Assembly (NCBI GenBank): GCA_000934665.2
Contig: JYFJ02002351.1
Coordinates: forward strand, 1-58,581
DNA from: Catajapyx aquilonaris
Lineage: Eukaryota
Length of the DNA: 58,581 bases
Direction: 5' to 3'
Below, piece after piece: positions 6,995 to 58,500 of the stretch. Both the position numbers and the translations under genes were made by a program. How positions within the stretch are numbered: the stretch's first letter is position 1; each line of letters begins with the position of its first letter. The notes under the pieces are model-generated. The model saw only the letters and a program-made list of their open reading frames with translations, was not told the DNA's origin and did no database searches.

Positions 6995-8662
6995 ATGGAG
7001 GACAAGTTGAAGCGGTACGAGAAAGTTGACTTCCTCGGAGAAGGACAGGTTGGTCAAGAAAAATGGGGGGAAAAGCGGCCTAAAGGGGCCTTAAACACTC
7101 GACATACAACAGGGTTTCAATACATGAAGCTTTGGTTGCCCATGGATCATACTACATTAAAATATGCTTAATGGTGATTACGGACGACATGATTGTCAAC
7201 AGCACAGCATTCATTAGGAGCATTGCCACATTAGAAATAAACGTTAATTAAGGAATTAACACGCTGGCTTAATTTTCCAGTTTGCGACAGTATACAAGGC
7301 GAAGGACATCGAGGAGGATGGGAAAATTGTTGCTGTCAAGAAGGTACAGAAAGGCACTGGCGCTTACATTTTAGTGTATGCGGATAGTTAAACCGCATTT
7401 TGTAATTTCAGATTAAGCTGGGAAGCCGGGCGGAGGCTCGGGATGGGATCAATCGTACTGCTCTGCGTGAGATCAAGATCCTGCAGGAGCTGAAGCATCC
7501 CAACATAATCGGGCTTCTGGATGTGTTCGGACACAAGTCTAATGTGTCGTTGGTGTTTGACTTCATGGACACTGACCTGGAGGTTATCATTAAGGACACC
7601 ACCATTGTGCTGACTCCGGCAAACATCAAGTCTTACACTATAATGACCCTGAAAGGACTGGAGTATCTGCATTTGAACTGGATCCTGCATCGTGATATGA
7701 AACCAAACAATCTGCTCGTCAACACCCAGGGTGTCTTAAAAATAGGAGATTTCGGTCTGGCCAAATTGTACGGGAGTCCAAACAGGATTTACACGCATCA
7801 GGTGGTCACCAGGTGGTATCGTTGCCCTGAACTGCTGTATGGTGCCCGCATTTATGGAACAGGCGTGGACATGTGGGCTGTCGGCTGCATTCTGGCCGAG
7901 CTGCTTCTGAGGGTACCCTTCTTGCCTGGAGAGTCGGATCTTGACCAGCTGGCACGTATCTTCCAGGTTTTGGGGACGCCCAATGACAAGACATGGCCGG
8001 TAATTGTTGTATTCAAACTATCCAACCGTACTCTCCCTTCAGTGTCAGGCTTCTTGCCAATTAATCGCAGGATTGTTGTAAATTGAACGTTTGTACAATC
8101 AACAGGGCATCATGTCATTGCCAGACTATGTGACCTACAACGAATTCCCTGGAACCCCTCTTCGGAACATCTTCACAGCTGCAGGAGATGATCTGTTGGC
8201 ATTGCTCGAGGCCCTTCTAGCTGTGAATCCGCAGGTTCGATGCAACTGCAGTACAGCTCTCCGCATGCCTTACTTCAGGTAAGTCCTGGTTTTCCACATC
8301 AGTGAGGTATAGAGAGTTCTCGTTACGTGATTCTATGATTCAAGGCTAAGCAAAGTACTTTCTGTGCTCTTATGGGTATATACTTTAGGGGAAAAAGTGC
8401 TGATTATCAGGATATGATGAGAACTGGCTACACACTTTTAAAAATTATTGAAACCCGTCCTAGAAATAATTCGACACTAATTTATACTAACATGACCGTT
8501 CAATTGTTCAGCAACAAGCCTGTGCCAACAGCTGGCCCAAATCTGCCTCTACCAGCAAGCCTTCGGCAGAAGGAGGAAAAAAGTGAGGACAAAACAAGGA
8601 AACGGAAGCATCCAAGAGACAATGGGGGTGAATCATCACTGGTGAAGCGCCTTCAGTTTTGA
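6995..8662 (+). CDS. CDK7: Cyclin-dependent kinase 7 (CAK/TFIIH kinase), 342 aa, 5 exons
   Basis: Exons 6995-7048, 7281-7343, 7412-7999, 8106-8278, 8512-8662 (1029 nt). [11 protein letters not shown] glycine loop, NRTALRE helix, [12 protein letters not shown]-loop [23 protein letters not shown] at 8697-8702. Confidence 0.97.
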
Positions 8663-8788
8663 GCTGTGAATCTTTACTATGCATAATTGTGCAAGTAATA
8701 AAGTTAAGTGTGGACTACAACAGATGCCTCACACAGTATTTAGTGCAAATAATTACCCAGTACTGAAGAGGAAAAAAACATTGGCGGG

Positions 8789-11700
8789 TCAGAGGTTAGG
8801 TGGTGCATCCTGAAGAAAAGAGAGATTTGATTATTAATAAATCATGGCATAAGTGCAAGTGGCCTTCTTAACAGGCATGCAAGTTGTCAGAAGGCTTCAT
8901 TTTCCATTATTATTATTGTGCTTTACTTCTGCTACTATTACTTCAGTATAAGTTGGTTCTACGAAGCAAAAGTTTCAAAATGGCAAAGAGGTTGAACATC
9001 AAGAGTTAGTGGTTACTTTTTTTTCCGACTCTTACCTGCTTTAAGTCAACGTATCCTCCATTGATCACAACTTGGTCGCTCTGCTCAGATGTCACCCTGA
9101 AGTGCACCCTCTCCCTTCCGCTATTCTCCCACATGTCCACTCGAAATGTGTCACCAGGATAGAGTGGTTTTGCAAACCGGCCCTTGACTGCCCTGATTCT
9201 CTCCACGTCATTGCCAGTGTAATTCTGCAAGACAGCCCTAACAGCTATCCCAAAACAACAGAGGCCATGGAGGATTGGACGCTTGAAGCCTCCTAATGCA
9301 GCCGCATCTGGGTTTATGTGCAAGGGGTTGAAGTCGCCAGACAGGCGATACAGAGCAGCCTGGTCCACAGAAGTGGGAAACGAGGCTGATTTGTCTGGGC
9401 TGCGAGACGGAGGCTCTTCCGGCTTGATAGCATGGCAGGAGTTGTGCTTTCCACCAAATCCTCCCCTTCCAACAGAGAAGAGTGAGAACTGGTTGAACAT
9501 CACTTTGTGGCCAACCTTGTCGTATGTGTCCACTGTCAAGAAGAGTTGGGCATGCCATTGGTATTATTGTCCTTCAAATACTGATTAAAACTGGAAAGTG
9601 AGCAGACATAGGATGTGCTAGTCTACCATGAGATATAATGTACTCACCATTGACAATTACAAGGGTTCCAGACCCCTTATCAAGCACATCAACCAATGAG
9701 ACTTGGGAATGCAGTGTATCAGAGGGCTTCAGCGGCTGGAAGAGTTCAATGAATTGCTCTCCATGAAGGATACGTCGGAGATCAAGGTGCAATCCAGGCC
9801 ACCCTCCGAACACCAAGTTGCTGGATACAATAGCATGCTGGGCTGGAACTATCCCAAATGTTGGGATAACAGAAAAGTGCTTCTCCCCTTCAAACAGGAA
9901 CTTTAGGAAGTCTGGCTCCGTAGTGGACACTCCAATGCCCAGAGCATAAACAATTACTTCATGTGGTTTATATGAGTAAGTGCAACGTGGAGGCTTGTAT
10001 GAGAGGGCGCGACTCTGAAAATTAAGAAAAGGAAGACACTCAAGCATGCATTCCGTTCTGGTATGGTGTTGGGTAGACGTGTGGTGCAGTAACTTCATCA
10101 TGACATAAATTTGATACTGAAACAGTAATCATATGCATAGAATACTATACCAAGTCAGTTGTAGCTCTGGAAGGCCCTACTTGTTGAGTCCGAGCCTTCA
10201 TCTCCTCCAGGGTCATCAAAAACGACCCTGTCACCTCCTGAATTGAACTGGGTGGAGTTGCTCCTTCCATGTCTGTTGCTTTGTCCCACTTGGCCTGGAC
10301 ATCTTCCAGCGTAGGTACCTTCAGCAGGTCCCCCCTCAAGGCCACTCCGCCTCCCCTGTACCACTGGTACCTCCCCACCCAGCCTGCTGCGGACTCTATC
10401 ACGCATCCAGAGTCAGAGCATGACTCGTGGCACATCCAGCAAACCACAGGGGCAATCAGCTCAGGCTTCAGCTGCTCCAACAGATCTGGTGGCATTATGT
10501 CTTCAGTAAGACGTGAAGCAGCCATGGGGACAATTACGTTGCAGTGGATGTCGTACTTGCGTCCTTCAATTGCCAAAGTGTTAGCCAGACCAATCAGGGC
10601 CATCTTGACAGCACTAGAATAATGATGTTAAGATATGCCTTACATCAAACTTGTTAGACAAAGTCCCTTTCCAATAAGAAAACCTACCTGCAGCAGGCTT
10701 GTCCAGAGTTGCCAAGTAGACCAACCACAGATGAAGTCATGATGATTCGCCCAAACCCCAGGTTCCTGAAGTGACGCCAAGCAGCCTGTGTGGTGCGGAA
10801 GATCCCCTTCAAGTGAGCCTGCTGCGTCAAATCTGAAAAATAATATTATTGCAGCATTCAAAGTATGTTGGCCAAAGTCCACATGTCTGCTAACAATATG
10901 CAGTCACACAAGTTCAGAAATGTGCCTTCAAATCAAATGCAACCTGAAGCTTACAATGTACGATGTACTATTTTAAAAATTAAATTAACATCTTGAAAAA
11001 TGCAATAGTGCTCAGTGTGTTACCCATGGCATTACCTAACATAGGCCTATTTCCATAAAACAATCATGTTCACACTGTAAGTGTATCGCTTGGTCAGTTA
11101 TGGATCAGTACAGTTACCTAAAATTACTGTAAAGCCTCTGAATCTATTTGAACCTGCTAAAAACGTTGTTAACGATGTTGATGCAACTTACCCCAGTCAC
11201 TGTCACTAATCTGGTCAAAAGAATTATCTTGGAGGATCTCAGTACTGTCAACAAGGATGTCCACATGACCAAACGAACTGAGAGCAGTTTCAATGATCTT
11301 CTCGCCATTTTCAAGTGAGTTGTAATCTGCCACTGCTTTCCCACCTACATGTAAAGGTGATGATGCATTTCACAAGTTTAAAAATCTGAATACGTGTGAA
11401 CCCACCTTTTGCTTTGATCTCATGGACAATGGAGTCGGCTGAGCTTGTGCTGATCCCTTCTCCATTCGTGGACCTCCCTGAATCATTGACAACCACGCTG
11501 GCACCCTTCTCAGCAAAAAGCAAAGCGCATGCTCTGCCCAGCTCTAAAATATAGGTAGAGTGTTGCATTCAATTGCTTTTTTCCCATTGAAACTAGAATC
11601 GCCACTTGCATTGCAGGTGCATTGGCTCACACAGTATGCCAACACCTCTTTGATTAGAAAATCAGGATAGTTGTGCTCTGAATTTCGACTTTCTGACAGA

Positions 11701-11927
11701 TGAGTTGAAAGTTTGTCCGCATTATGTTCTCAGATAATTCCAATGATAGAGAGGACTTCCCTGTTGTTCTTTTTCACATTACATGAAAGGACGTGATAGC
11801 AAGTCCGGTCTGTTAGCACAGTTACTTACTCAATATGCGTCAATGTGCTTAGTTACAAACCTGCACCAGCTCCGGTGATGATGGCAACACGTCCATCAAA
11901 TCTGAGTCTGCTCTGTTCACCCGGCAT
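8789..11927 (-). CDS. HSD17B4: Peroxisomal multifunctional enzyme type 2 paralogue B (degenerate SDR domain + intact hydratase 2, no SCP2), 616 aa, 8 exons
   Basis: Exons 11927-11861, 11543-11406, 11344-11192, 10832-10688, 10613-10151, 10014-9648, 9532-9036, 8809-8789 (1851 nt, phases consistent, no internal stop seen). [49 protein letters not shown]. The terminal microexon (DAPPNL*) is inferred by analogy with copy A. Confidence 0.9.
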
Positions 11928-12414
11928 AGTCTCTGATATCTGTCTGTCCTGGAGAAGCAATCCAAAAGGTGCCTTCAGGATGACTTGTTCCAAGTACGAA
12001 GAGAGCTGGCTCTTCTGCAACTTATGTATTACACACCCTATTGCAAAATGGGAGCTGCACAACCCAGAGGAAAAATGCAGTAATACGTTACATCCACTAT
12101 GCTTTATGATACGATTTCAAAATATGGAATACAACTCCTTTCAGTCCAGTTGTTGTTCCATTCCCATTCGCAACAGAGGAGAGCTAGCAAGAAAGCCAGG
12201 TTAAGGAGGAGGATGCAGCGGGAAGTCGGTATGATTGAATCTACCAGGTTAAAATGTCTGCATTTTGGCCCGAGCTTTATTAAGCATCCCTCAACAAGTA
12301 ATAAAAAGTAACAAAATATTGTGGCCTACACCCAACATAATCATCTTTGGTCCCTAATCCCCCAACAAAACATAAACTGAGCAATTAAAAATGCAGCAGG
12401 GTAATATTGGCAGC

Positions 12415-15400
12415 TCACAGGTTTGATCTTGAGCCCTGAGAAAGAAGAGAGTTCAGATTAACATTAGACATGTCAGGGTAGGTTTTGCCAAACTGGTGTA
12501 TATTTTATGATAGTTTTATCGTCATTATTAATTGCTTTAAAATGCTAAGCCAGATAGATATGCTACCTGTAAATCGTACAGCTGGAGCGGTGAAATGAAA
12601 CCTGAAGAGTTATACTCCTTTCATAAGATTATACATCAGACATCACTACAGTATCTGTACTGATGAAAAAATAGCTCAACAAAAAAACAGAGAAATGGGT
12701 CATAATACAACCATAATTCCTATAAGTACTGCTCTGTTTAGCGTCAGCAGATCTGAGACATACACGTGAGCTACTTAACACATGACGTACTTCTTTAGTT
12801 TCAGTAACTTGTATTGGAAAATATGATATATTTCTCAAGAGGGCGACACTCAACTGTTCATGTTACTGCCTGTGCTAAAATGCCATTCTTGTCTCCTTCA
12901 AAATGTAAATCAAGTTTCCCATGCGTACGGCTGCACTTATTGGATCTCTTCCTGAACTGTTTTTGTCTTTCTTTCAGGGCCCCAATATATTTTTAGTGGC
13001 AGGTGTTCATAATGAATGATGCAAGATGAAAAAGAGAAACTCAGTGTCATCCTAGCTATTGTCATTGTGGAATACCACATCAGATGTTTACATTTTTGCC
13101 ATTTTTCCAATTTAAAATCACTACAGTGGATTCCAGGAACCTCATAAAATCATTATTTTAATTCTTATGGGTATGGTAAAAGGGCATTATATTATTATTT
13201 TTTCAGCTTACCTGATTTAAGTCAATGTAACCTCCACTGAGCACGACTTGGTTGATTGGCTCAGCTGTCACCCTGAAGTGCACCCTGCCTCTCCCTCTGT
13301 TCTCCCACATGTCCACTCGAAGTGTATCACCCGGATAGACTGGTTTTGCAAAACGGGCTTTGACTGCTTTGATTTTCTCAACTTCATTTCCAGCATAGTT
13401 TTTCAGGACAGCCCTCAGTGCTATTCCATAAGTGCAAAGACCATGGAGGATAGGACGCTTAAAGCCTCCCATTAAAGCGAAATCTGGATTTATATGCAAG
13501 GGGTTGAAGTCACCAGACATGCGATACAGGGCAGCTTGGTCCACGGATGTGGTGTATGAGGCTGTCTTGTCTGGGTTACGTGAAGGAGGATCTTCTGGCT
13601 GAATGGCCCCAGATGTAGTGCGTCTCCCACCAAAGCCACCACTTCCAACAGAGAACACCCCAAACTGGTTACGCATCACCTTGCGCCCTGCCTCGTCATA
13701 AGTGTCCACTGTCAAGTAGAAAACAATTTTTTGCAAATAATTTGATAAAGAAATTAGTAAATCGTAAATGATAATGTTCACTTCATCTTACATTACAAGA
13801 AGCTCCAGTTACAAGTAAAATAAGTTGGCATCATTATATTCATCAATAAAATTACCTCAATGGTTAATTTTTATTGGCATCATGTATTCTACAGGGTGAT
13901 TCTCTCGAATGGAAACCCAAACATTGCTCAATAACTTTTTAGCTATGGTATGGTTCCCGATGAAAATTAACATATTATAGTTACCTTGTATCATGCCTAA
14001 CAAGGTCTGACTAAAGAATATACCAAAAGTGGTCCCCTCCAGCATCCAAGAATTTTTAAATCCGAGTCTGCACATTGCCGAAGATTCCTGCAGATTGGCA
14101 GCCGGGATGACCTCCATCCCCCGCCACCGCGTGCCAGTGAAAGTGAAAGTCACTTTTAGTCATCCTGCTGTGGGCTCTGATTGGTCCACTATTCCGTTTC
14201 GCTCGTTTCGTATGCCACCGTCAGCTAGTGATGGTAGCTGACGGCGCGCGGTGGCGGGAGATTGATGCCATTCCCGCCGCCACATCTGCAGGAGTCTTCG
14301 GCAATATGCAGACTTGGATTTAAAAATTCTTGGATGCTGGAGTGGACCACTTTTGGTATATTCTTTAGTCAGACCTTGTTTGGCATGATACAAGGTAAGT
14401 ACATGTCAATTTTCATCGGGAACCATACCATAGTTCAAAAGTTATTGAGGAATGTTTGGGTTTCCATTCGAGAGAATCACCCTGTACAAAAGAGTGTAGA
14501 GTACTTTTTCCAGGTATAGGCCATATTTTCGGCGCTACAGCGACTTGAACCAAGCCGAGGCCATGCCGAACACGTGCAGGCTAGCACGTGTGCAGCGTGT
14601 CCTCGGCTCGGTTTATTTACGAACGATGCTATTGGACCCGGTCCTGCCGTTCGCATGCAGGCTAGGGTTGAAGTCGCAGTAGCTCCGAAAATCCGGCCTG
14701 CATGTGGAAAAGGTACTCTATACTCTTTCGTAGAATACATGTTTCTCTACAACCTTAGTTTGACACATTTCCTCCTGAGAAGCATAGTTAGCTCAGAAAA
14801 GACTTCTAACTCGCTTCAAGGTAGCCAACCTGCAATTACGGGCCTCCAGGGTGAAAACGGCCATGGCAATTGGGAAAGTATGGTCTCAGGGACATTCCCA
14901 CCAAATTTTACCAAGTGCATGGTTTACTCTTTTTTCGTCGCTTAATTGGGTTCAAGCTTGGTTCAAGTCTCTGCAGCTCCGAAAATATGGACTGTACGTG
15001 GAAAAGGTACTATATACTTTTTGTAGGATACATATTTCTCTACCACATTTGTTTGGTACCTATCCGCATGAGCAGCACAGTTCGGTCCGAAAATGACTCT
15101 TCACTCATTTCAGGGTAGCCAACCCGCCTCCGGGACAAATACGGCCATGGCGCCATATCTGCATTTGAAGAGCATGGTCTCAAGGACATTCGTACCAAAT
15201 TCCATCCTTTCATCACCAAATGCACAGTTGACTCATTTTTCGTCCCTTAACGTCCTGAGACTTCTGCCTTCTTTTTTTTATTTTTAAAATATTTTTTTTG
15301 ACAGCACCCCATTCTCAGGCCTTGGGCCCTTCTTATGGGAGTGGAATATCACTATTTTTGGAAACATATAGTGTATATATGTTAATTGTTCCAAGGGTAG

Positions 15401-18400
15401 GTAGGAGCGGATGTGCACAGTGCAATGTCGCATATTGCCGATATTGGTCATTTTGTGAACTCCCCCGGGTGGATTAGTCTAGCGGAAATTTCCACCTGAG
15501 ACGAAGCCAGAGATGGCCCAACTCTGGACGAGATAAAGGGGGGAACCGGGCTGGGATCGAACCCGGGACGTTAACATCCGTGGGCGCATGCGTTAGCAGA
15601 GCACCAGTCCGCCTCCCCGCGACTCCTGACTATTATTATTAGTGTAACCCTTGTTGCCTGTTAACATGAGTCAAACTGATATTACCAACTGAATGCATAT
15701 TTGCATTATTCCATACTCACCATCAATAATTGCAAGAGCACCGGATCCCTTATCAAGCACATCTACCAATGAAACCTGGGAATGCAGAGTGTCCGAGGGC
15801 TTCAGCGGCTGGAAGAATTCAATGTAGTGTTCCCCATGCAGGATAGTGCTGAGGTCAAATTCCAAGCCAGGCCACCCTCCTAGCATGAGGTTGGTGGACA
15901 TCATGGCATGCTGAGCTGGAACTATCCCAAAAGTAGGGATGATGGAGAAATGCTCATCTCCTTCAAACAAGAATTTCAGATAGTCAGGTTCAAGGGTGGA
16001 CACTCCAAGGCCAAGGGCATATATAATTGCTTCTTTAGGTTCATACGAGAAGGTGCTTCGAGGAGGCTTGTACGTAAGGGCTTGACTCTGTTAAAGGAAA
16101 TAAAGAGAATGTTTATTTTATTCCTATTTATTTATTCATTCCCCGTTCATTCCTATCCCTTAAAAGTTGTGTTAATCTTTGCAAAAGTATATCTAAGCAC
16201 ACTCACCACGTTAAGCCCATCTGAGGCTGATGCTTCCCTCGTGCCTATTTTTCCTGTCCCAGCCTTCATCTCCTCCAGGGTCATCAAAAATGAGCCTGTC
16301 ACCTCCTGAATTGAACTGGGTGGAGTTGCTCCTTCCATGTCTGTTGCTTTGTCCCACTTGGCCTGGACATCTTCCAGCGTAGGTACCTTCAGCAGGTCCC
16401 CCCTCAAGGCCACTCCGCCTCCCCTGTACCACTGGTACCTCCCCACCCAGCCTGCTGCGGACTCTATCACGCATCCAGAGTCAGAGCATGACTCGTGGCA
16501 CATCCAGCAAACCACAGGGGCAATCAGCTCAGGCTTCAGCTGCTCCAACAGATCTGGTGGCATTATGTCTTCAGTAAGACGTGAGGCAGCCATGGGGACA
16601 ATTACGTTGCAGTGGATGTCGTACTTGCGTCCTTCAATTGCCAAAGTGTTAGCCAGACCAATCAGGGCCATCTTGGCAGCACTGAAACAAACAGTTAAAA
16701 TAAATTCATTCAATTGGGAAAATAAATTCATGATCTCATAAAGGGCATTTCCACGCAAACACGGACATGGCATCGCAAATTTCAACCCCATAAAATCAAC
16801 CGGAAAGAAACAGGCATTGGAAGGAGAAGGTTCCATGGTTCTGTTTCTCATGGGATTGTGAAATACAATGTCCCGCTAGGCCAGTGGAGACAGTCGAAAA
16901 TGAAGGAAATGTGGAAGCCACGAAAGTTGAGATGGCACATCATATTCAGGCTTATTATTCGACGTTGTTACGCAAGTTGAGTCCGTGGGCCTTGTTACAC
17001 GTCCTTGTGGAGGCCCCAAGGAATGACTGTGCATGCAATTCTTGTAATCTGCAATCAATGTCAATGAGTAATATTGGCACAAACCTGACACGTTTCAGTG
17101 TCCATTCGTTATGGTGAAACATGAATCTGATCATGTGGGGAAACATACGTGCATATGGCAGTTGTATCTTCTCGAATTCAAAGTAAGTCAGTGAGCCGGA
17201 CATTTTCGATCAAATGCATCATCCCTCTCAAATGACTGGAAACATCATTTCTCCGCCGTAACGAACGGATGTCCCATGTAGTGAGGCGCACTTGAGCAGG
17301 CAAACTACTGCTCTGCAGGGTGTGCAGGAATATTTTTATGCACACACATTTACCAGGTGACACAATTGGACATGTAAGTACCAGTTATGAGACCTCCATC
17401 CTACAGTCACTACAGAGCAGTTCCACGAAAAGGTCTTTCCTACATAAATGTGCAAAAACCGAAGTAGTAAGGAAAAATCATGTTAACATAAATTAACATG
17501 ATTAATTCGGAACTAGATAGCTATTGCGTATGATATGCACCTAATTTCCTGCCACTGTATCATTCTCTACATTGGGAAAGTGATACATGTGCAAAAATTA
17601 TGCAGGATACATACCGTGTGCTTCAGAATGAACATGACATAGTGTCATGTACTAAACCTAGGTTCAATGTCTCATTCGCATTGGATGAAACAATGCCGCG
17701 TACCTGCTGGTCACCTTCACGGGGACTTCAAATTATACAGGGCAGAGAGGAACGGGATGGAATGGGAAAGGTAGCGTTCATTCACCTAATTTCTGCATCA
17801 CGATTGGGATTTGAAACATTCAAGTGCTGTCAGCTTGCAGGAGTGTCGATACAATTTCACCTGATACAAATGAGAGTCTCGAATAATTTGGCATCAGATG
17901 ATTTTGAGAAGTGTTCTTGACAAAGAAAGATAGAGTCGTATGTCCAGCAAATTCCTTAAAGTGACTGAAATTTTCTGTATGTGGGTAACTGTCCTTAAGT
18001 CATTGTGAAATAAATTAGTGTCTTCAGAAGTCGGGCTATGAACTTGAAGTTGCCTTCATGACAACAGCATCAAGCTCAATTAGGTTTAAACACAGCCTTT
18101 CTCCACATAAGGTATTTTATTTTCCCTTTCCCAGTCACTCTACAAAAGTTTGCGTTCTGTTGTCATGCACATCGCCATAAAGTAATAATTTAAAAAAAAT
18201 AATAATTCATACCCCGTTATCAGCCATCGGCTCTTTAGAGGGGAAGTTTGTTTTGGCTGCAACTCTTTGCTTTTCATTTTACTGTGCTCTTTGGGATAGG
18301 ATAGGGACGGAAGGAAGCGGCTGTGGCCTATTAATTACGGAAACAACTCCGGAATTTCCCTGGAAGGACCGTGGGAAACCACAGAAAACCACGATAAGAA

Positions 18401-21079
18401 TTGCCGGCCCCGGGATTCGAACCCTGGACCTCCCGATTAGCAGTCGGACGACTTATCCACTATGCCAACCTGCTTCGGTCCACATCGCCATGAAGTAGTA
18501 GTATCCTTGCTGCTGTGTGTATTTATCCCTTTTTTCCAAATAAAAAGAGCTTCACAACTGTCGGTGGCGTACGATGTCCATTCGTTACAATCTGTCCGTT
18601 CGTTACGGCAGCATGGAGAGATCGGCACTGGTGTTGCCATTTTATGAAAATTCGAAGATCATTACGATTTCTCTTCCTTCATTACTTCTCTTGCCAACGT
18701 CGCAAGAAATGGACGTTTCTGACCTTGGAGCTCGCAGATTTTGACATTGTTGGCATGAAGGTGGATTTTCATGTCTCGGATGTGTCAGTTCGTTACGCAG
18801 GTTTTGGAGACGTGTACAATGGTATGTTATCATAACGAAATGCATGCACTGCATGAAATGGATTCAGCATAGCCACATTCTCATGCAGTATACTGCCATT
18901 TTCCTTGACAGTCTATTTATCCTCTCTGCGAACATTTTCATTGGGGAAATAGCGTAAGACTGTCCGTTCGTTACCTGTGGAAATGCCCTAAACCAGTTTC
19001 AAAGCAGGAAGTCAGGCCACAATTTTCATGCAATCATCTCCTAAACCATTTCAAACATACACAAGCAATTTTACCTATAGTTGGCTTGCCCAAAGTTTCC
19101 AAAAACACCAGCTGCTGATGAAGTCATAATTATTCGCCCATACTCTTGCTTCCTGAAGTGAGGCCAAGCAGCCTGAGTTGTTCGGAAGGCTCCCTTCAGG
19201 TGGACCTGTTGGATCAAATCTGAAAAATAATTGATTGCACATGTTCTCAGAATATGATGCAAAAACACTAAAAAAATAATGTCACTTGGTGTAAACTACA
19301 GGCTGCGTGTTTGTTCTCAAAGTACTACCTCGTAACAGCTGCCTACTGTTCTTAATGACCTTTAATGTTTAAACATCCTCTGTTTATGTTACAATAAAAA
19401 GTGACTAAGGAAGCACTTAAGAAAGTATGACATTAATGATTAACGGCATTAATGCAGTCTACGTAAGCAGTCTTCAATTGGTGTTCAAGGAACCTTTGGT
19501 TTCTGCAAGCCTGCTCAAAGGGTTAGCTAAAAAAAATATTCAGTAGGTGTGATACAGTAGTTAGATAAACATTATGACATAGACAGGATAAGTCTGTTAT
19601 TCAGATGCCAGAAAATACGGAAATTGGTCCAGATATGAGTAATTAATTAAAGGAAAGAACTAAACAGTAATTGCAGGTCTTAATCATTGGGCATAATTGA
19701 ACAATATTGTAACGGGTCATGGGAGTGTGTGCAAAGCAAATCAGTTTATAATATATTTATGGTGCAAGGAAGTTCCTGCAACTCACCCCAGTCAGAATCA
19801 CTGATTCGGGCGAAGGAACGATCTCGGAGGATCCCAGCATTGTTGACAAGGATGTCCACTCGACCAAATGATCTGATGGCAGTCTCAATAATCTTCTCAC
19901 CATTTTCAACCGAGTTGTAATCTGCTACAGCTTTTCCACCTAAAGTGTTAAGATAACACAATTCATGAATGAATAATAAGTAATTATTGTAAACAATAAT
20001 GTACACACAAATAGAAACACTCTCTTGCCTGTAACCACTGTGTATAAAAGAATGACCAGCCTTCCAAAGAAATTGAAATAATACTGCAAAACCCATGTAA
20101 TGATATTTCTTCATTTCCTGAAAATTTTTCATAATAGACAAGCTTCTGCTATATGGAACATTTTCATACATTTATTGTCACATGTTGACCTTCTCTTTTT
20201 CAAGGTGCAATAGCACAGCCATTTTTTTTGCACACACACACACACACATACCGAAACCATTTTATCACACAGTCAAGCACATATCAGTCAAGTAGTGGCC
20301 TCCATTATCGCAGAGCTCTGATAACTGCACTTAAGTCAGAGTCCACTCTCATCCTCACTCAATGACCTCTTTACAAGTTGACCTCCAAGTTCAACTCTTT
20401 GCTTAAAAAATCAAATCACCCCTGTTATACCACATCATAATAATTATACGTGTGACATTTTCATAAATACATAGCATACATCACAGTCTCTCAAGGACAC
20501 AAATGGACGCTATCAGTACTTGATCTGGATACTGTGTTCTCTATGTTAGGTAGCAGGACTGAGTAATAGCAAGAGCTAATAACTGTTATTAGCTCTTGGT
20601 AATAGCTTGATTTTGCATCTTGTGAAGAATACAAGTCACTCAGGTGTTTCGCAATAGTAATGCAAAAACTGAAAACAGGATGAGGAAGCTCCTGATGATT
20701 TGCACTATTTAAAAACACCGACTAGTTGCACAGATCCCCTTCTAACCCACTTCTTCTGACCACACTTCCTCACATGCTCATGTGAACCCACCTTTGGCTT
20801 TGATTTCATTAACGACGGTGTCTGCCGCCCTGTTGCTGCTTCCTTCCCCTGACCTGGACCCTCCGAGGTCATTGACAACCACGCTGGCACCTCGCTCAGC
20901 AAACAGCAGTGCATACGCCTTGCCCAGTCCTGTAATAATTGAGCATGCAATTAGGATGCAGGCAACCGATTCCTCCAGCTTTGTTCCAATATAAATGAGT
21001 GCGATGCAGCACCTGCTCCAGCTCCAGTGACCACTGCGACCCTCCCGTCGAACCTGAGCTTGTTCCCTCTTGCAGCCAT
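12415..21079 (-). CDS. HSD17B4: Peroxisomal multifunctional enzyme type 2 paralogue A (3R-hydroxyacyl-CoA dehydrogenase + enoyl-CoA hydratase 2, no SCP2), 620 aa, 8 exons
   Basis: Exons 21079-21013, 20929-20792, 19939-19787, 19219-19075, 16681-16207, 16087-15721, 13708-13212, 12435-12415 (1863 nt). [47 protein letters not shown]-terminal GSRSNL* (PTS1-like); AATAAA (-) at 12281-12276. Confidence 0.93.
13892..14484. mobile_element. Tc1/mariner-type MITE, near-palindromic with >200-bp TIRs
   Basis: TA|CAGGGTGATTCTCTCGAATGGAAACCCAAACATT ... AATGTTTGGGTTTCCATTCGAGAGAATCACCCTG|TA. The ORF track shows mirror-image peptides (13857..14153 - and 14262..14519 +). Confidence 0.9.
14487..15250. repeat. 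Diverged ~295-bp tandem repeat (2 units) plus a partial inverted unit, probably a TE remnant
   Basis: 'gctccgaaaat..gtggaaaaggtact', 'ggtagccaacc' and 'atggtctca.ggacatt' each recur ~295 bp apart; an inverted copy lies at ~14487-14556. Confidence 0.65.
15400..15618 (-). mobile_element. tRNA-derived SINE (same family as 2276 and 30081), diverged and 3'-truncated
   Basis: The reverse complement reads GGGGAGGCGGACTGGTGCT...CCCACGGATGTTAACGTCCCGGGTTCGATCCCAGCCCGG and continues to 'gacattgcactgtgcac'. Confidence 0.85.
16743..18988. mobile_element. Decayed DNA transposon, possibly Sola-like, filling intron 4 of Mfe2 copy A
   Basis: 12-bp TIR GGGCATTTCCAC / GTGGAAATGCCC with TAAA on both flanks. 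Fragmentary + strand peptides [11 protein letters not shown] and PSYSHYR (~17315-17420) resemble Sola transposase motifs; the superfamily call is inference. Confidence 0.65.
18240..18480 (-). mobile_element. Second tRNA-derived SINE family, nested in the transposon
   Basis: The minus strand has a tRNA-like head TTGGCATAGTGG...GGTTCGAATCCC followed by a body 'gtggttttctgtggtttccc...ccaggg...taggccacagccgcttccttcc'. Confidence 0.7.
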
Positions 21080-25200: not shown

Positions 25201-28200
25201 CCTACCTCTCATGGATGCAATGAGTGGAATGACCCTTTAAAAGTTGGTCAGCTTAGCGCATCTTATTGACGACGAAGGGCTTTTCCGCTTTGAGCATTTT
25301 TTTCCGGTACGTGCCTTTTATCTGCTGCTGTAATTATTACTTTTGCGGTTATGAGGATTTTCAGTTCCCAGCCCTTGATTGACTCCCTTCAAAGAACCCA
25401 CGGATTTCCAACTCCCCCCGCACATTAATCCCCACCCTCTTCCCCAAAACTCGCCTGAAACATTCAGGATTGCCTGAGAGGAAGCCACAACGACCTCCCC
25501 CCCCCCCTCTCTTTCTGTGTGTATATCTCTCCCTGAGGCGACCGAGTGTGAAAACCCGTTGGTTCCCAACCGGAAAACATTGCCACATGCAGTCATTATT
25601 AATGACACCCCAGCAGCAGCAGCAGCAGGTTTCCCTTTGAGGTTAGGATAAAAAGGAATAAATTGGTTCCGGAGAATAGGTCATCATCATCATCACCGTG
25701 GGCGACACCAAACGACGACTCGACAGCATCTCTGCCGCAATAAGCTTCGTTGGTGTCTGGAAGCGTCTGCCTGAAAACCCCCCGCTGTATGCAAATGTGT
25801 GCCCGGGCCTTTTCCTGCTAATTATGACGCATCCTCTGGCACCAAGCAGATTGGCCTCGTTAGCCAAAATCCTTTCAGGGGACCTGGCTTAAACGCGCAA
25901 CCTGTAAGATCTGACTCACCCTCCTATGTATACAGGCTGGTGTACTATCCAGGAAATCGGCAGTGTATGTAATTCCTAACGCCATTGTCGCAATTTTATT
26001 TGGTGCGAGGGTGGGGCCAAAATGGGTTGGATTTTCTGTGGGGGTGGTGTGGGTGGGAAGAATCGATTCGGCTGCTGCATGCTGCGCACAAAGGTCGGCG
26101 CCAGAAAAGTATGTCCCCCAGCCTGAAACATTCCCCGAGAGATGATGCTTACCGTCCTTGTTCATGCCCATCTGCAAGCACTTTTTCAGGCGGCAGGCCT
26201 GGCACTGGTTGCGATGGGCCTTGTCCACCACGCAGCCTCCGGTTCCGGCCTGGCACCTGTGGAAAACAGAGACCACTGTTTTGTCTATTCTCTATAATCA
26301 AAAAGGACGTCCCTACCTGTAGATGAGCTTCCTTCGGACGCTGCGTTTGAAGAATCCGCTGCAGCCGTTGCAGGCCAGGATTCCGTAGTGCTTACCGGAA
26401 CTGGTGTCCCCGCAGACCACGCAGGTCAGCCCAGTGGCGGCCCTCTTGTTGGCGGCCAGGCCCAGCTGGGGCGGACCCACCCCGGGGGGAGAGCCCAGGG
26501 CGGAGGAGGGGGATGCGGCAGAGAGGAAGACGGAGGTCGGGGGCGGACCAGGGGCGGAGCTGGAGGGGGCGGTCGGGGTCAGGGGCCGGGGAGGGGATCT
26601 GCTGGCCTGGACCACCGTCTGAGGGGGCGAAGGAACAGAGATGTTCCCGGGGCAAACCAGAGGGGACGGGGATGGACTTCTTCTGCCGGGACCATCTGAA
26701 ACCGGACACAACACGACACTTCTATGTTCTATTGTAATCAATGACGCTCCTATTCACTCTAATGAACCGTTTTCAAAAGAGTACGACACGAGCACTTTAT
26801 ATGCTCTTCACATGAGAGATGATAAGTACACACACCATTCGAAACCTGAATCGAGTTCCGTTCATGAATGGGATGTTTCTATGCAATAATTTTAGCACTT
26901 TTTCGTATTATTCGCTTGTGCCCCGCCCCCTTCATGATTAACAACTAATACTTCCTTGAGAAAAGTTGAATTGGGCTCTTGCAGTCTTAACGATTTAATA
27001 GTTTTTATTCATTATTTGTATGCTTCCCGTGTTCACTCATCATGTACCGGTATATTATAGCCTATATAGAGTGCAAGTGGTTGAAATGGCAAAAATTGAT
27101 TTTGGGTCATTTCAATCTGTTGGTAATATTTCTGAAAGATTTATAAAATATCGGGTACATCATGCATATTGTATAAGTAACAAAATACAGTAATATTACT
27201 CCTATTTAAATATAAAATGACAAGGTTAATTCTTCATTCGCCCCTTACTGCAACGGAAAATAATGTACACTCGATTGTCAAATAAGTGTCCCAAATTCTG
27301 GTTTAATTCCAACGATCTGCTGTTCTTATTAAGAGGCCATACTGTGTCGTACACCATCATTATATATGGTGGATACGTAATTATCAACCAATTAATACAC
27401 AAATATCTGGCAGCACCCCCCAAAAACATTGCACTTGACAATTGATTACCAATCTCATCCCCTGTCAAAATGCAACCGCGTAATCCGTGACCCCCCAAGT
27501 GGTTAAAAAGAGGGGGCCATCTGCCAGTGTCCTCTCCCGGCATAAGATACTCCGTAACAAAATAATCCGGGTCGAATAGGGGAGAGGAATAAAAAAGAGA
27601 GGGGACCTGCAATAGAGAGTGCTGTGTCGTGTGTGTGTGTGGAGCAAAGCGTGATTGTGCGCATGGGCCGTGGCTTGTAAGTCTGCGCGCCCCATCTGGC
27701 GAAGGCTTGATTAGCGTGTCAATAGAGTCGCCGTGGGGCCGGAGCAATTCCGGCCTTATTTGCGGCGCGAGTGCCAAGATTGGAGGCCAATCGAAAATTA
27801 ATTATCCCCAGCGGGGGCTGCACTGGCGTTTAATCAAGCTGAAGAGGCACGAGCTGCGGATCTAAGGGTGTTAGGCGGGAATAGATATGCTAATGAAATT
27901 TCGCAAATTGCTCCCCTCCTTTCGGCTGCGAGGCTGAGGGATGAAAAATGGGCGCAAAAAAGGTGAAGGGAGGAAGGAAGTGGGTGGGTGATGGGAAAGG
28001 GAAAAGGGGGGGGACATGTCTTGGAAGGAGAAGGAGGGGGGTTGGAGACTATAGCTCTCCCCCCCCCCCTTCCCCCTTTTCGCCTGTAAACAACATCGAG
28101 GGATTCCTCTTCATATTCACTTGCAAATGTCTTCCCTGCGCTGGGCTTACTTGTCGTTAATCTTCCTTCATTAAGTGGAGCTTCCGGAGTTGCGGTGTCA

Positions 28201-55570: not shown

Positions 55571-58500
55571 CTAAAAATCCTTTGGCAAACCTTTCTTCCA
55601 CACTGTGTCTTTCAAAAGGGTTACTTCAGGCAAATCTAATATCTCCTGCACAATGTCCTTGAATCCCAGCTGACTTGCCATGCAGTATTTTATTTCCAGG
55701 TCATTTGTTTCAGACACCAGCTGTTTAAGCCTGGATTCCATTCCACGATTCAGCTTAAACTCTTTCTGATATCTGAAAGTGACATAATATGGCATGTCAG
55801 TGACACAGCTGTTATGTGACTCACTGCTCCACTGAAAGTACAGAATAAGCAGCAGGTTTACCTCTTCACAACTTCCTCCACAAGTGAACCAGTTAATGTC
55901 ATGGCCCTGTGGAAGTCTTGCAGAAAAGTCATGGAGCCATTAACGACCACTTGATGATACAAAATTGAAGCCCAGTCCACAGGATGGTTGTATGCCTTTG
56001 CCAGTATTAGGCCCTGGGCTAGGCTGCAAAATTAAGTGCTTGACATGTGAATTGATAAAAAAGTGAAAAATGAAAGAATATGAGAGGCATTAAATAAGTT
56101 ACTGACATAAACCAGTGCAGACATAGCTATGATTTTATGGGACATCACATTTCATATTTTTCATATATTTCATATTTCATCACATTTTCATATTTTCATT
56201 CCTTCAAGGATAAGTTTCCAAGTTATACAGGGTGAAGGGAAACTCACGCCCAATCGCCAGGTAGACTGATAGTACTCGCAAAACTAATATAGGGATGTGC
56301 AATTAGTTTTGGGCGCCGTAGCGTAGTTAATGAGTATGGTGCCTTTAAAGTTTGGTGACGTCACTACCGTTCCGCCAGCTTCTATGAAGCAAAAGCCAGC
56401 TCCGGGTCCCTTGCCTTGGTCCCCTAACACATCATCCATGTGCAATAGGTGATCAAATCCCGTCAGAGTAAGAATCCGGGTACAACACTGGTTCACTTTG
56501 TCGTTTTTACCTCGTATTTTACCATCTGGCCCTTCTACACTTTAAAGGTGCAGTACACATTAACTACACACCCGCGCCCAAAACTAATTGCACGTCCCTA
56601 TATTAGTTTTGCGAGTACTATCAGTCTACCTGGCGATTGGGCGTGAGTTTCCCTTCCCCCTGTATAATGCCACTCATATGTGTGAAACAAAAATTATTGA
56701 TCATTCCATAGTACCAGTCAGCCCCCTGACACAAATATGATACGGTAGTTTATTATAAAAGGCTCCGCCAGGCGGGGACTTTGGCGCTGGTGTGCCCCCA
56801 CAGCCGGCTACCGCTGCCAGCCACCCGAATCCTAATCTGCGAACGCCCTCCAAGGAAAGAATGGTGTGGGTTGGTTCCGAAGGCGCCCAACCTGAACAGA
56901 CTCCCCACTAGCCGGCTGTGGAGGCTCACCAGCGCCAAATTCCCTGCCCAGCGGAGTCTTTTATATTAAACAACCTTCAACACAGGGCTAGGCTGGATGT
57001 GTCAGGGGGGTGGTACCAGTAATAAATTGGAACTGTGCTGTGATAACAATGCAACATAAATTGTTCACAAAATACTGTGCAACACTTTTCTTAAATAACC
57101 ATCCTTACTTGAGCACATTTGACATGAGGTGTGTGATATCCTTAGGTTGAAGAGACAGGACAGAGTAAGCTGGCTTCCCATCTGGCACTAAATTGAGCAA
57201 ATACTGCTGCAATGCCAGCAGCTCTGCTTGATTTGCACAATCTATTGCTCTGCTCAACTTATCAGCTTGCATGTAGTACTCAGCAGCATGGGCGTAATTC
57301 TTCATGGCCACATTCAAACTTTCACTTGATTCCTGTGAGTTAGCAAGTGCAGGACAGCTTCCTTCTGTCTTTAATCCTTCGTTTGAAGCTAACACCTGCT
57401 TCACAACAATGACAGCTTCTGACTTCCACATTTCTGCCACCTCTTTCCCCATCATAAAGTGCTGGGCAACCAGTCTGAATAGCTCCCGGTCATCTGGGCA
57501 GCTGCGCTTCAGGTAGTCCAAGACAGCCATCTTATAAGGGGGATGTTTGTCCACTCCCTTACGCAGAAGGTATTCAAACTGTTCACACTCACGCAGGATG
57601 TCAAATATGTAGTTCAGTTCTGAATAGCGCTTGATGCCTGTCAGCAGGCGTACCTGAAAAATAACAAGATTATAGTAATGATCTGATTCCACTAAATGCA
57701 TTTAGGGTATAACGCAGTTGTACTTGCCACCAATATTTGTCATGTCATAAAATCAGTTAACTATTAATCTATCAACCAAAATAGCTTAAATTACATGATC
57801 AATGCAAAAAAAAATCCTAGATCCTTTGAAAACTAACACTCTGCCAGCAAATTGATAAAAAAACTGGTATTTCCAAATGTAAAAACCTTTTCCATCGCTT
57901 CCAACTCTGAAATCAATATTGCAGTGTTACTTATACTACACAAGTTATACTTGCCAGTAGTCCCCACTGCTGCTCCTGCTTCAGTGTCTCAGCCAAAGAC
58001 CGAGTTTTCCTCAGGACCAAGCATATCCCTTCCATGTTACAGACTTGAGTGTAACAATCATGAGAGCGTACATACAGCTCAACTGCTAATGGCAGAGTAA
58101 CACCTATAAAATTAATAGAAATATTGCTATCAAAATACGTAACCGGAACCTGTGTAATATACCTAGTATTAATCAAATTGGAAAATTTCCAACACTGTAC
58201 CATCTGTACATGATGAAGCCTTTGCCATGAGGCGATTTCCGAGTAGGCTGGGATCCTCACAAATGTTGATGAGAGAGCTGAAATGGGCATCCAATTCAGA
58301 TGACTTCTTAGGACTTTCATTCTCCTCAGCACGTCCATGCTTTTCTGAAATGACAATACCTGCTAGAGAAATACTGGTGCCTTGGTGCTCGATTGCAATA
58401 CAGAGCTGTACCTTTGGTGATAGCAGATACAATCTCACCACACAAGAATTCAGCCAGGTCACTCTGATTTATCAGCATTGAAACTACTATTCCACGTGCC

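Follow-up and report, generated by a model that had tools for sequence, protein, structure and literature searches.

We analyzed a 58,581-nucleotide stretch of the Catajapyx aquilonaris genome assembly (contig JYFJ02002351.1 of GCA_000934665.2; referred to here as the window), in which two genes resembling that for multifunctional enzyme type 2 (MFE-2; also Mfe2 or HSD17B4) are arranged head to tail, both on the minus strand, in animal DNA that carries spliced genes. In peroxisomal beta-oxidation, MFE-2 is the textbook example of a hydratase fused to a dehydrogenase, a fusion that is split in worms and plants and has one half doubled in fungi. We refer to the two genes as copy A, an intact paralogue, and copy B, in which the hallmark motifs of the N-terminal short-chain dehydrogenase/reductase (SDR) half are lost and the C-terminal hydratase-2 half is conserved. 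Copy B is probably a retained, hydratase-only paralogue of the MFE-2 family (lacking an SCP2 domain) that is expressed and selectively maintained and that carries a pseudo-dehydrogenase domain.

The gene model of copy B (Table 1) keeps its 616 codons open, with no stop codon, frameshift, or lost splice site, and all seven of its introns have GT-AG boundaries. Seven of the eight exons are equal in length in the two copies, while exon 5 (475 nt in A versus 463 nt in B) differs by a 12-nt in-frame change in the linker. An SCP2 domain was present in neither copy, both of which end in a 21-nt exon. A tblastx comparison of the B region with the window matched only copies A and B. Regarding domain identity, B exons 3 and 4 matched the SDR folds of 2ET6, 1GZ6, 1ZBQ, and 3OML (E values of 1e-14 to 7e-08); with Pfam adh_short, these exons taken singly scored 16.5 and 22.7 bits, respectively, which is below the cut-off of 26.6 bits.

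All three dehydrogenase features of MFE-2 (i.e., TGxxxGxG, NNAG, and the full Ser-Tyr-Lys [YxxxK] set) fail in B. The Gly-rich loop reads TGAGAELG in B and TGAGAGLG in A, and the Glu codon of B spans the junction of exons 1 and 2 (11861|11543). The NNAG region, which A keeps, reads DILVDSTEILQD in B, with DSTE at 11249-11238. Around the catalytic Tyr, also kept in A, B reads GNSGQACCSAVK; C167 is encoded by TGC at 10692-10690, and the pair Cys166-Cys167 (10695-10690) stands where A has Asn-Tyr. Of the catalytic set, B thus keeps Ser (153/154) and Lys171, with Tyr replaced by Cys167, and no compensating Tyr or His was evident next to C166/C167. Dinucleotide binding and proton transfer in the SDR family depend on the Gly-rich loop, NNAG, and Tyr.

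The placement of these substitutions was assessed by phmmer alignment with PDB chains, in which DSTE of B lay opposite NNAG of rat 1GZ6 and Candida tropicalis 2ET6, and GNSGQA of B lay opposite GNFGQA of human 1ZBQ and 2ET6. We also compiled a census of the 53 homologues, among 120 listed, that covered all of the SDR motif columns (many others were partial records). All 53 kept each of NNAG, Tyr, Lys, and Ser, and 51 of 53 had Gly at the column of E23, both exceptions having aberrant N termini. Because the motifs are nearly invariant among these homologues, B is a clear outlier within the MFE-2 family at its SDR motifs: it is a member by descent that fails three defining dehydrogenase features.

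The hydratase half of B forms the expected double hot-dog (MFE-2_hydrat-2_N in exon 6 and MaoC in exon 7; E values in Table 1). Exon 7 matched human 1S9C (E = 3.4e-50), with the hydratase motifs aligned to each other. The D511/H516 pair, which we take to be the catalytic pair of hydratase 2, is intact in B, and D..H was present in all 120 of the listed homologues. An earlier sequence-only reading of this DNA had described eight in-frame exons with GT-AG sites, seven of them equal in length to those of A, together with loss of the three SDR motifs and an intact hydratase motif. Each of these descriptions was borne out, by the gene models, by the PDB alignments, and, for the SDR motifs, by the 53-homologue census.

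To place the duplication, we compared both copies with 28 named MFE-2 proteins (from insects, molluscs, an annelid, a bryozoan, echinoderms, a hemichordate, amphioxus, a tunicate, and vertebrates; referred to here as outgroups), treating exons 1 to 4 (B residues 1 to 167) and the hydratase (B residues 336 to 609) as separate regions. Copies A and B were sisters in the maximum-likelihood tree (ultrafast bootstrap [UFBoot] support was 100 whether the full set or either half was used), so the duplication is lineage specific. Pairwise synonymous divergence (dS) between them was ~0.7 to 1.0 outside a converted tract in exon 5 described below, and the direct repeats between A and B ended within a few bases of the exon edges, the introns no longer aligning. 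Given this dS and introns diverged past alignment, the duplication is not young.

Pairwise dN/dS (omega) between A and B was 0.17 to 0.21 for the hydratase and 0.19 to 0.25 for exons 1 to 4. We also simulated neutral drift from the sequence of A at 0.30 to 0.45 substitutions per site (5,000 replicates). Exons 1 to 4 showed 50 amino acid differences versus a neutral expectation of 77 to 98, and the hydratase showed 70 versus 126 to 162; in neither region was any of the 5,000 replicates as low. Replicates free of stop codons made up 0.7 to 2.3% for exons 1 to 4 and 0.06 to 0.3% for the hydratase. All 28 splice-site bases (14 dinucleotides) are kept in B, for which the neutral chance is ~1e-5 to 3e-4. 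Since the neutral simulations never matched the low numbers of differences and the splice sites are kept, B as a whole is under purifying selection.

The change accumulated by B is nevertheless distributed unevenly. Relative to the outgroup majority, unique changes in exons 1 to 4 numbered 3 in A and 27 in B (binomial p = 8e-6), versus 11 and 13, respectively, in the hydratase. Among columns conserved at >=90%, those changed in exons 1 to 4 (n = 82) numbered 1 in A and 18 in B, versus 5 in each copy for the hydratase (n = 80). Maximum-likelihood branch lengths followed the same division (exons 1 to 4, 0.031 for A and 0.584 for B; hydratase, 0.127 and 0.208), as did scores against a profile of the 28 outgroups (N-terminal SDR half, 295.6 bits for A and 226.0 for B; C-terminal SDR half, 183.0 and 180.1; hydratase, 384.6 and 381.1). 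A rough estimate of branch omega, obtained by apportioning pairwise dN according to these branch lengths and halving dS (i.e., arithmetic, not a fitted model), was ~0.4 for B and ~0.04 for A in exons 1 to 4 and ~0.2 and 0.13 in the hydratase. The excess change of B is confined to exons 1 to 4, the N-terminal half of the SDR domain.

The 18 changes at conserved columns in B form two groups. The first has 14 members (G23E, Y28C, L44S, G46R, N101D, N102S, A103T, G104E, R107Q, Q144L, Y159L, F162S, N166C, and Y167C), and many of these presumably fall, according to SDR topology, in or near the Gly-rich loop, the end of the NNAG strand, and the loop before the catalytic Tyr. The remaining four (V17I, R35K, V61I, and V79L) were conservative; V17I, V61I, and V79L, which affect the hydrophobic core, were considered as proof of fold constraint and rejected because three cases are too few. 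Of the 50 residues that differ between A and B in exons 1 to 4, 34 were absent from all 28 outgroups.

Sequencing runs were compared with the window over positions 8600-12100. Four were DNA runs, all of one sample that may itself have been the assembly's source, and a further run (X5) was of another sample from another study. Two X5 contigs matched B with 0 mismatches. One of 193 nt joins 9648|9532, with intron 6 removed (CT..AC on the plus strand), and covers 9800-9648; the other, of 1,406 nt, joins 9035/9036 to 8808/8809, with intron 7 removed, covers 9318-9035, and extends 913 nt past 8600. The joined, intron-less forms of introns 6 and 7 were absent from the deep DNA runs X1 and X4. We regard the X5 contigs as specific to B because A and B are only 77 to 78% identical in these exons, and we read X5 as RNA because the contigs are intron-less. 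B is thus transcribed, with two of its seven introns removed exactly as modeled, including the one whose removal creates the -DAPPNL end.

The DNA runs agree with the assembled sequence of B. Contigs of X1 and X4 matched B exons 1 to 4 with 1 to 2 differences over 10578-12100; the differences were at 11633 (in an intron) and 11922, neither of which is a motif site. A single 3,337-nt contig (X1 and X4) spans A exon 7 through B exon 4, and the two runs cover all of B with 0 to 2 differences. At 11922, X4 has A while the window and X1 have C (minus strand, CCG to CCT, synonymous, in B codon 2), probably because the sequenced individual was heterozygous at this site.

The sequence-only reading had proposed a half-dead enzyme that was nonetheless retained, and it had named as outcomes that would speak against this proposal a lack of transcription, a dN/dS near 1 throughout, and reads with Gly or Tyr at the motif sites. 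We instead found spliced, B-specific X5 contigs across introns 6 and 7, omega values of 0.17 to 0.25 with neutrality rejected in both halves, and DNA contigs that agree with the window at the motifs, albeit from what may be the source sample. The excess change lay in the N-terminal SDR half with the hydratase resembling that of A, as a domain-specific loss predicts. None of the adverse outcomes that could be assessed here was observed, and the proposal of a retained monofunctional hydratase with a pseudo-dehydrogenase domain is supported.

The C-terminal half of the SDR domain has a different history, which the sequence-only reading had missed. All 320 of the 31-mers shared by the B and A regions lie in 10607-10227, a tract of B exon 5 that is 100% identical to A (Table 1). 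In the DNA runs, this tract forms a 381-nt contig of its own at approximately twice the depth (59 versus 28.5). Its dS is 0.01, versus 0.7 to 1.0 elsewhere, and its flanks are ~77% identical. The tract is a recent gene conversion between A and B. It encodes B residues 170 to 296, carrying Lys171, the helix that follows Lys171, and the C-terminal SDR subdomain, and B differs from A at 1 of these 127 residues (A170V, at the tract edge). The C-terminal SDR half of B is therefore nearly identical to that of A because of gene conversion, and the Tyr position in exon 4 was left unrestored because the 5' edge of the tract lies six bases into exon 5.

With Glu in its Gly-rich loop, DSTE in place of NNAG, and Cys in place of the catalytic Tyr, the SDR domain of B most likely can neither bind NAD+ nor oxidize 3R-hydroxyacyl-CoA. 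The hydratase-2 double hot-dog, which is as well conserved in B as in the intact copy A, most likely still hydrates 2E-enoyl-CoA to 3R-hydroxyacyl-CoA. On established knowledge of SDR enzymes and MFE-2, B would perform the hydration step only, with no NAD+ binding and no proton abstraction, and it might then either release 3R-hydroxyacyl-CoA or modulate A. Because MFE-2 works as a dimer and the C-terminal SDR half of B is identical to that of A, our best guess is that the SDR remnant could serve as a folded, noncatalytic module for dimerization or scaffolding, in B homodimers or A:B heterodimers. Parts of the literature on the human enzyme provide precedents: loss of only MFE-2's dehydrogenase unit is a recognized class (D-bifunctional protein [D-BP] deficiency type III), G16S, a substitution in the Gly-rich loop, inactivates the dehydrogenase, Thr15 hydrogen-bonds to NNAG residues, and the MFE-2 domains, which belong to a double-dimeric enzyme, fold and act on their own as dimers (PMC3538638). 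Noncatalytic SDR subunits that serve assembly are described in PMC13418739 for petunia benzaldehyde synthase beta, with BbsCD and HSD17B8/CBR4 in its reference list.

The C-terminal tripeptides, likewise missed by the sequence-only reading, also differ. A ends in -SNL (12415-12426) and B in -PNL (8789-8800), and all 28 outgroups end in [SAPG]K[LM]. Among 41 plant tripeptides of the peroxisomal targeting signal type 1 (PTS1) tabulated in PMC9542071 (Table 1 therein), SNL, ANL, PKL, and PSL are included and PNL is absent. Because the C-terminal signal has drifted to PNL from the SNL of A, import of B into peroxisomes may be poor when B is on its own. In a more elaborate proposal, which we regard as rather unlikely, B would be a regulatory or channeling subunit that pairs with A via the SDR and hydratase dimer interfaces, its C-terminal SDR half being kept identical by conversion. 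An A:B dimer would then have two hydratase sites and one dehydrogenase site, -PNL would lead to piggy-back import on A, and the B:A ratio would set how much 3R-hydroxyacyl-CoA is released versus oxidized. Were this so, a lineage-specific use of 3R-hydroxy fatty acyl units would be fed.

A retained hydratase-only paralogue has to be weighed against other explanations of the same data. If B were a transcribed, unprocessed pseudogene in decay, with the dehydrogenase lost first and the remainder not yet hit, this would account for the destruction of three independent hallmark motifs, a branch 19 times that of A in the N-terminal SDR half, a targeting tripeptide off at two positions from that of the outgroups, and the low RNA depth; conversion from A could, moreover, prop up part of the B frame. 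The converted tract, however, comprises only 381 bp of exon 5, and the hydratase, outside it, has changed about as much in B as in A by unique changes, conserved columns, and profile score. Its 70 differences were never reached under neutrality, a stop-free hydratase arose in <=0.3% of replicates, the 14 splice dinucleotides are all kept against the odds given above, and the exons carry no frameshifting indel though the introns have diverged beyond alignment. We consider ongoing decay quite improbable. We attach similarly little credence to a use of only the hydratase part of B, from an internal transcript start or an internal Met in late exon 5, with exons 1 to 4 a relic. All of the excess change of B does lie in exons 1 to 4, stand-alone hydratase-2 proteins exist (e.g., plant peroxisomal enoyl-CoA hydratase 2, 7MKU), and the X5 contigs are limited to exons 6 to 8 and the 3' untranslated region, which is no evidence of absence for the rest. 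Were there an internal start, however, nothing would compel a relic lying upstream of it to hold its frame, whereas exons 1 to 4 have neither a stop codon nor an indel, keep all of their splice sites, score 226 bits against the MFE-2 SDR profile, and differ from A at fewer residues than in any of the 5,000 neutral replicates.

The SDR domain might instead be altered but not dead, with another cofactor, another catalytic arrangement, or a role in ligand binding. Consistent with this, the domain is under some constraint, Ser153/154 and Lys171 are kept, the C-terminal, substrate-binding half is identical to that of A, and the 34 residues unseen among the outgroups could reflect directional change as well. 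Glu in the Gly-rich loop (backed by PMC3538638), together with the loss of all four NNAG residues and of Tyr, nevertheless removes what the family needs; nothing beside C166/C167 evidently compensates; and gene conversion accounts for the retained C-terminal half without any need to invoke selection. An active but altered domain accordingly has only a slim chance in our view. Finally, an assembly or sequencing artifact, in which the motif changes or the duplicate would be unreal, is extremely unlikely. Collapse or chimerism in the assembly could be suspected from the identical tract, and the DNA support comes only from the probable source sample; yet the X1 and X4 Logan contigs rebuild A exon 7 to B exon 4 in one piece and cover all of B, the shared tract forms its own contig at the double depth that two real copies predict, and X5, from another sample and study, has B-specific exon 6 to 8 sequence without mismatches.

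Several points weigh against the view that B is an expressed, selectively maintained, hydratase-only paralogue. The RNA evidence comes from one run, X5, whose library type has no record and is taken as RNA. Its contig joining exons 6 and 7 has a low depth (2.5), and the contig with a depth of 14.9 runs toward a convergent CDK7 gene, so that this depth may not be that of B. X5 has no contig over B exons 1 to 5 or the shared exon 5 tract and is uninformative on expression there either way; that the SDR exons are present in the mature mRNA is inferred only from constraint and splice sites. Those DNA runs in which the motif sites agree with the window may have supplied the assembly itself and hence not be independent. 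The omega of ~0.4 for B exons 1 to 4 fits equally well a lasting weak constraint and a full constraint followed by complete release in the last quarter to third of the history of B, so a structural role for the SDR remnant remains putative. The open frame of exons 1 to 4 would be selected anyway for translation of the downstream hydratase from the upstream ATG. Neither protein searches nor a metagenome contig scan found an orthologue of A or B in related species. Searches with B exon 7 gave 1,641 matches among 3,014 candidates for longer proteins (<=57% identity among the 120 listed) and 1,425 among 1,535 for near-length proteins (<=58%), and the 54 loci of the contig scan were all distant MaoC relatives (25 to 42% identity over long matches; 52 to 63% only over 27 to 31 residues).

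The domain order of B, with an SDR dehydrogenase followed by a hydratase-2 double hot-dog and no SCP2, is shared with copy A and with Drosophila Mfe2 (CG3415, PDB 3OML), which matched B exons 3, 4, and 7 with E values of 1.5e-11, 6.6e-08, and 6.2e-45, respectively. Unlike these SCP2-less enzymes, B lacks the loop Gly, NNAG, and the catalytic Tyr. It also ends in -PNL rather than the [SAPG]K[LM] of the outgroups. In fungal Mfe2/Fox2 (C. tropicalis, 2ET6), the dehydrogenase unit was duplicated and diverged; both of its domains align to B exons 3 and 4 and have NNAG and GNFGQA in the aligned stretches, but that duplication lies within one polypeptide, whereas B and A are whole genes. In its likely net activity, that of an (R)-specific enoyl-CoA hydratase without a dehydrogenase, B would resemble the stand-alone plant hydratase 2 (7MKU), which matched B exon 7 (E = 3.2e-26). 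C. elegans MAOC-1 is another stand-alone hydratase 2. Stand-alone hydratases lack any SDR domain, whereas in B such a domain, degenerate but full length, persists in the same frame.

D-BP deficiency type III (G16S) likewise concerns one polypeptide with an inactive dehydrogenase unit (in B, predicted), according to PMC3538638; it is a disease allele of a single-copy gene, whereas B is fixed as a duplicate with an intact copy next to it, with several motif losses and signs of long-term retention. Petunia benzaldehyde synthase beta, BbsCD, and HSD17B8/CBR4 resemble B in that their SDR fold carries substitutions at catalytic or cofactor residues, theirs being retained for assembly with an active paralogue (PMC13418739). 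Those are separate subunits in solved complexes, while in B a dead SDR domain is fused to a probably active domain and partner binding is putative.

We found no description, in open-access full text, of a whole-gene MFE-2/HSD17B4 duplicate with one half switched off and the other kept. The B/A pair is, judging from its sequence, a clean and well-supported case of domain-wise subfunction loss after duplication, predictable in kind and drawn from one genome and one RNA run. If B is indeed a retained hydratase-only paralogue, the pair would represent a natural experiment in the dismantling of a bifunctional enzyme once it has been duplicated, possibly an animal source of free 3R-hydroxyacyl-CoA, and a further case of a dead SDR domain kept as a structural module. 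For annotation, homology would name B "peroxisomal multifunctional enzyme type 2" though its dehydrogenase step is hardly possible; B should not be labeled a bifunctional MFE-2.

Table 1. Coordinates of copies A and B, their exons, and the converted tract in the window
Feature	Position	Strand	Details
Copy B gene, start to stop codon	8789..11927	-	8 exons; coding sequence, 1851 nt, 616 aa; SDR-like N-terminal half and hydratase-2 C-terminal half
B exon 1	11861..11927	-	67 nt; 22 residues and first base of E23 codon
B exon 2	11406..11543	-	138 nt; 11543-11542 complete GAG (E23), replacing conserved Gly of TGxxxGxG
B exon 3	11192..11344	-	153 nt; DSTE (11249-11238) replacing NNAG
B exon 4	10688..10832	-	145 nt; catalytic Ser kept; N166C and Y167C (TGC TGC, 10695-10690)
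B exon 5	10151..10613	-	463 nt; S168, A169, V170, K171 (K, 10606-10604), C-terminal SDR half, linker
381-bp tract in B exon 5	10227..10607	-	100% identical to A 16295-16675
B exon 6	9648..10014	-	367 nt; N-terminal hot-dog of hydratase 2; PF22622, E = 1.5e-33
B exon 7	9036..9532	-	497 nt; MaoC hot-dog; motif 9350-9318, D511 (9335-9333), H516 (9320-9318); PF01575, E = 2.1e-28
B exon 8	8789..8809	-	21 nt; DAPPNL and stop; junction confirmed by X5 contig
Copy A, intact tandem paralogue directly upstream of B	12415..21079	-	8 exons; 620 aa; TGAGAGLG, NNAG, YSAAK; ends in -SNL
A exon 1	21079-21013	-	67 nt
A exon 2	20929-20792	-	138 nt
A exon 3	19939-19787	-	153 nt
A exon 4	19219-19075	-	145 nt
A exon 5	16681-16207	-	475 nt
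A exon 6	16087-15721	-	367 nt
A exon 7	13708-13212	-	497 nt
A exon 8	12435-12415	-	21 nt

Between the two copies, an AATAAA signal (12276-12281, minus strand) lies 134 nt past the A stop codon and leaves ~350 nt to the B ATG at 11927; B must therefore have a highly compact promoter, or else read-through from A may account for part of its transcription. Within A, intron 4 (a 2.4-kb intron that B lacks) contains a tRNA-Ser (GCT) predicted by ARAGORN (18402-18473, minus strand), which may represent a tRNA gene, or else the head of a repeat derived from a tRNA, and intron 6 contains two direct repeats of 63 nt each, at 14666-14728 and 14960-15022 (83% identical).

Beyond the pair, a single open exon of 226 codons (7406-8086, plus strand) encodes most of the CDK7 kinase domain (Pkinase, E = 1.1e-51) and is 76 to 85% identical to CDK7 of insects, vertebrates, and a crayfish (crustacean). 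This gene is convergent on the 3' end of B, and the X5 contig with the last junction of B extends toward it. Approximately 5 kb upstream of A, two open frames (25875-26753, minus strand) each encode one half of a C4 zinc-finger DNA-binding domain of the nuclear-receptor type (zf-C4, E = 3.4e-14 and 5.6e-10), indicating a nuclear receptor gene. Two further open frames (57105-58362, minus strand) match the C terminus of spatacsin (PF14649, E = 1.3e-51 and 1.4e-12).

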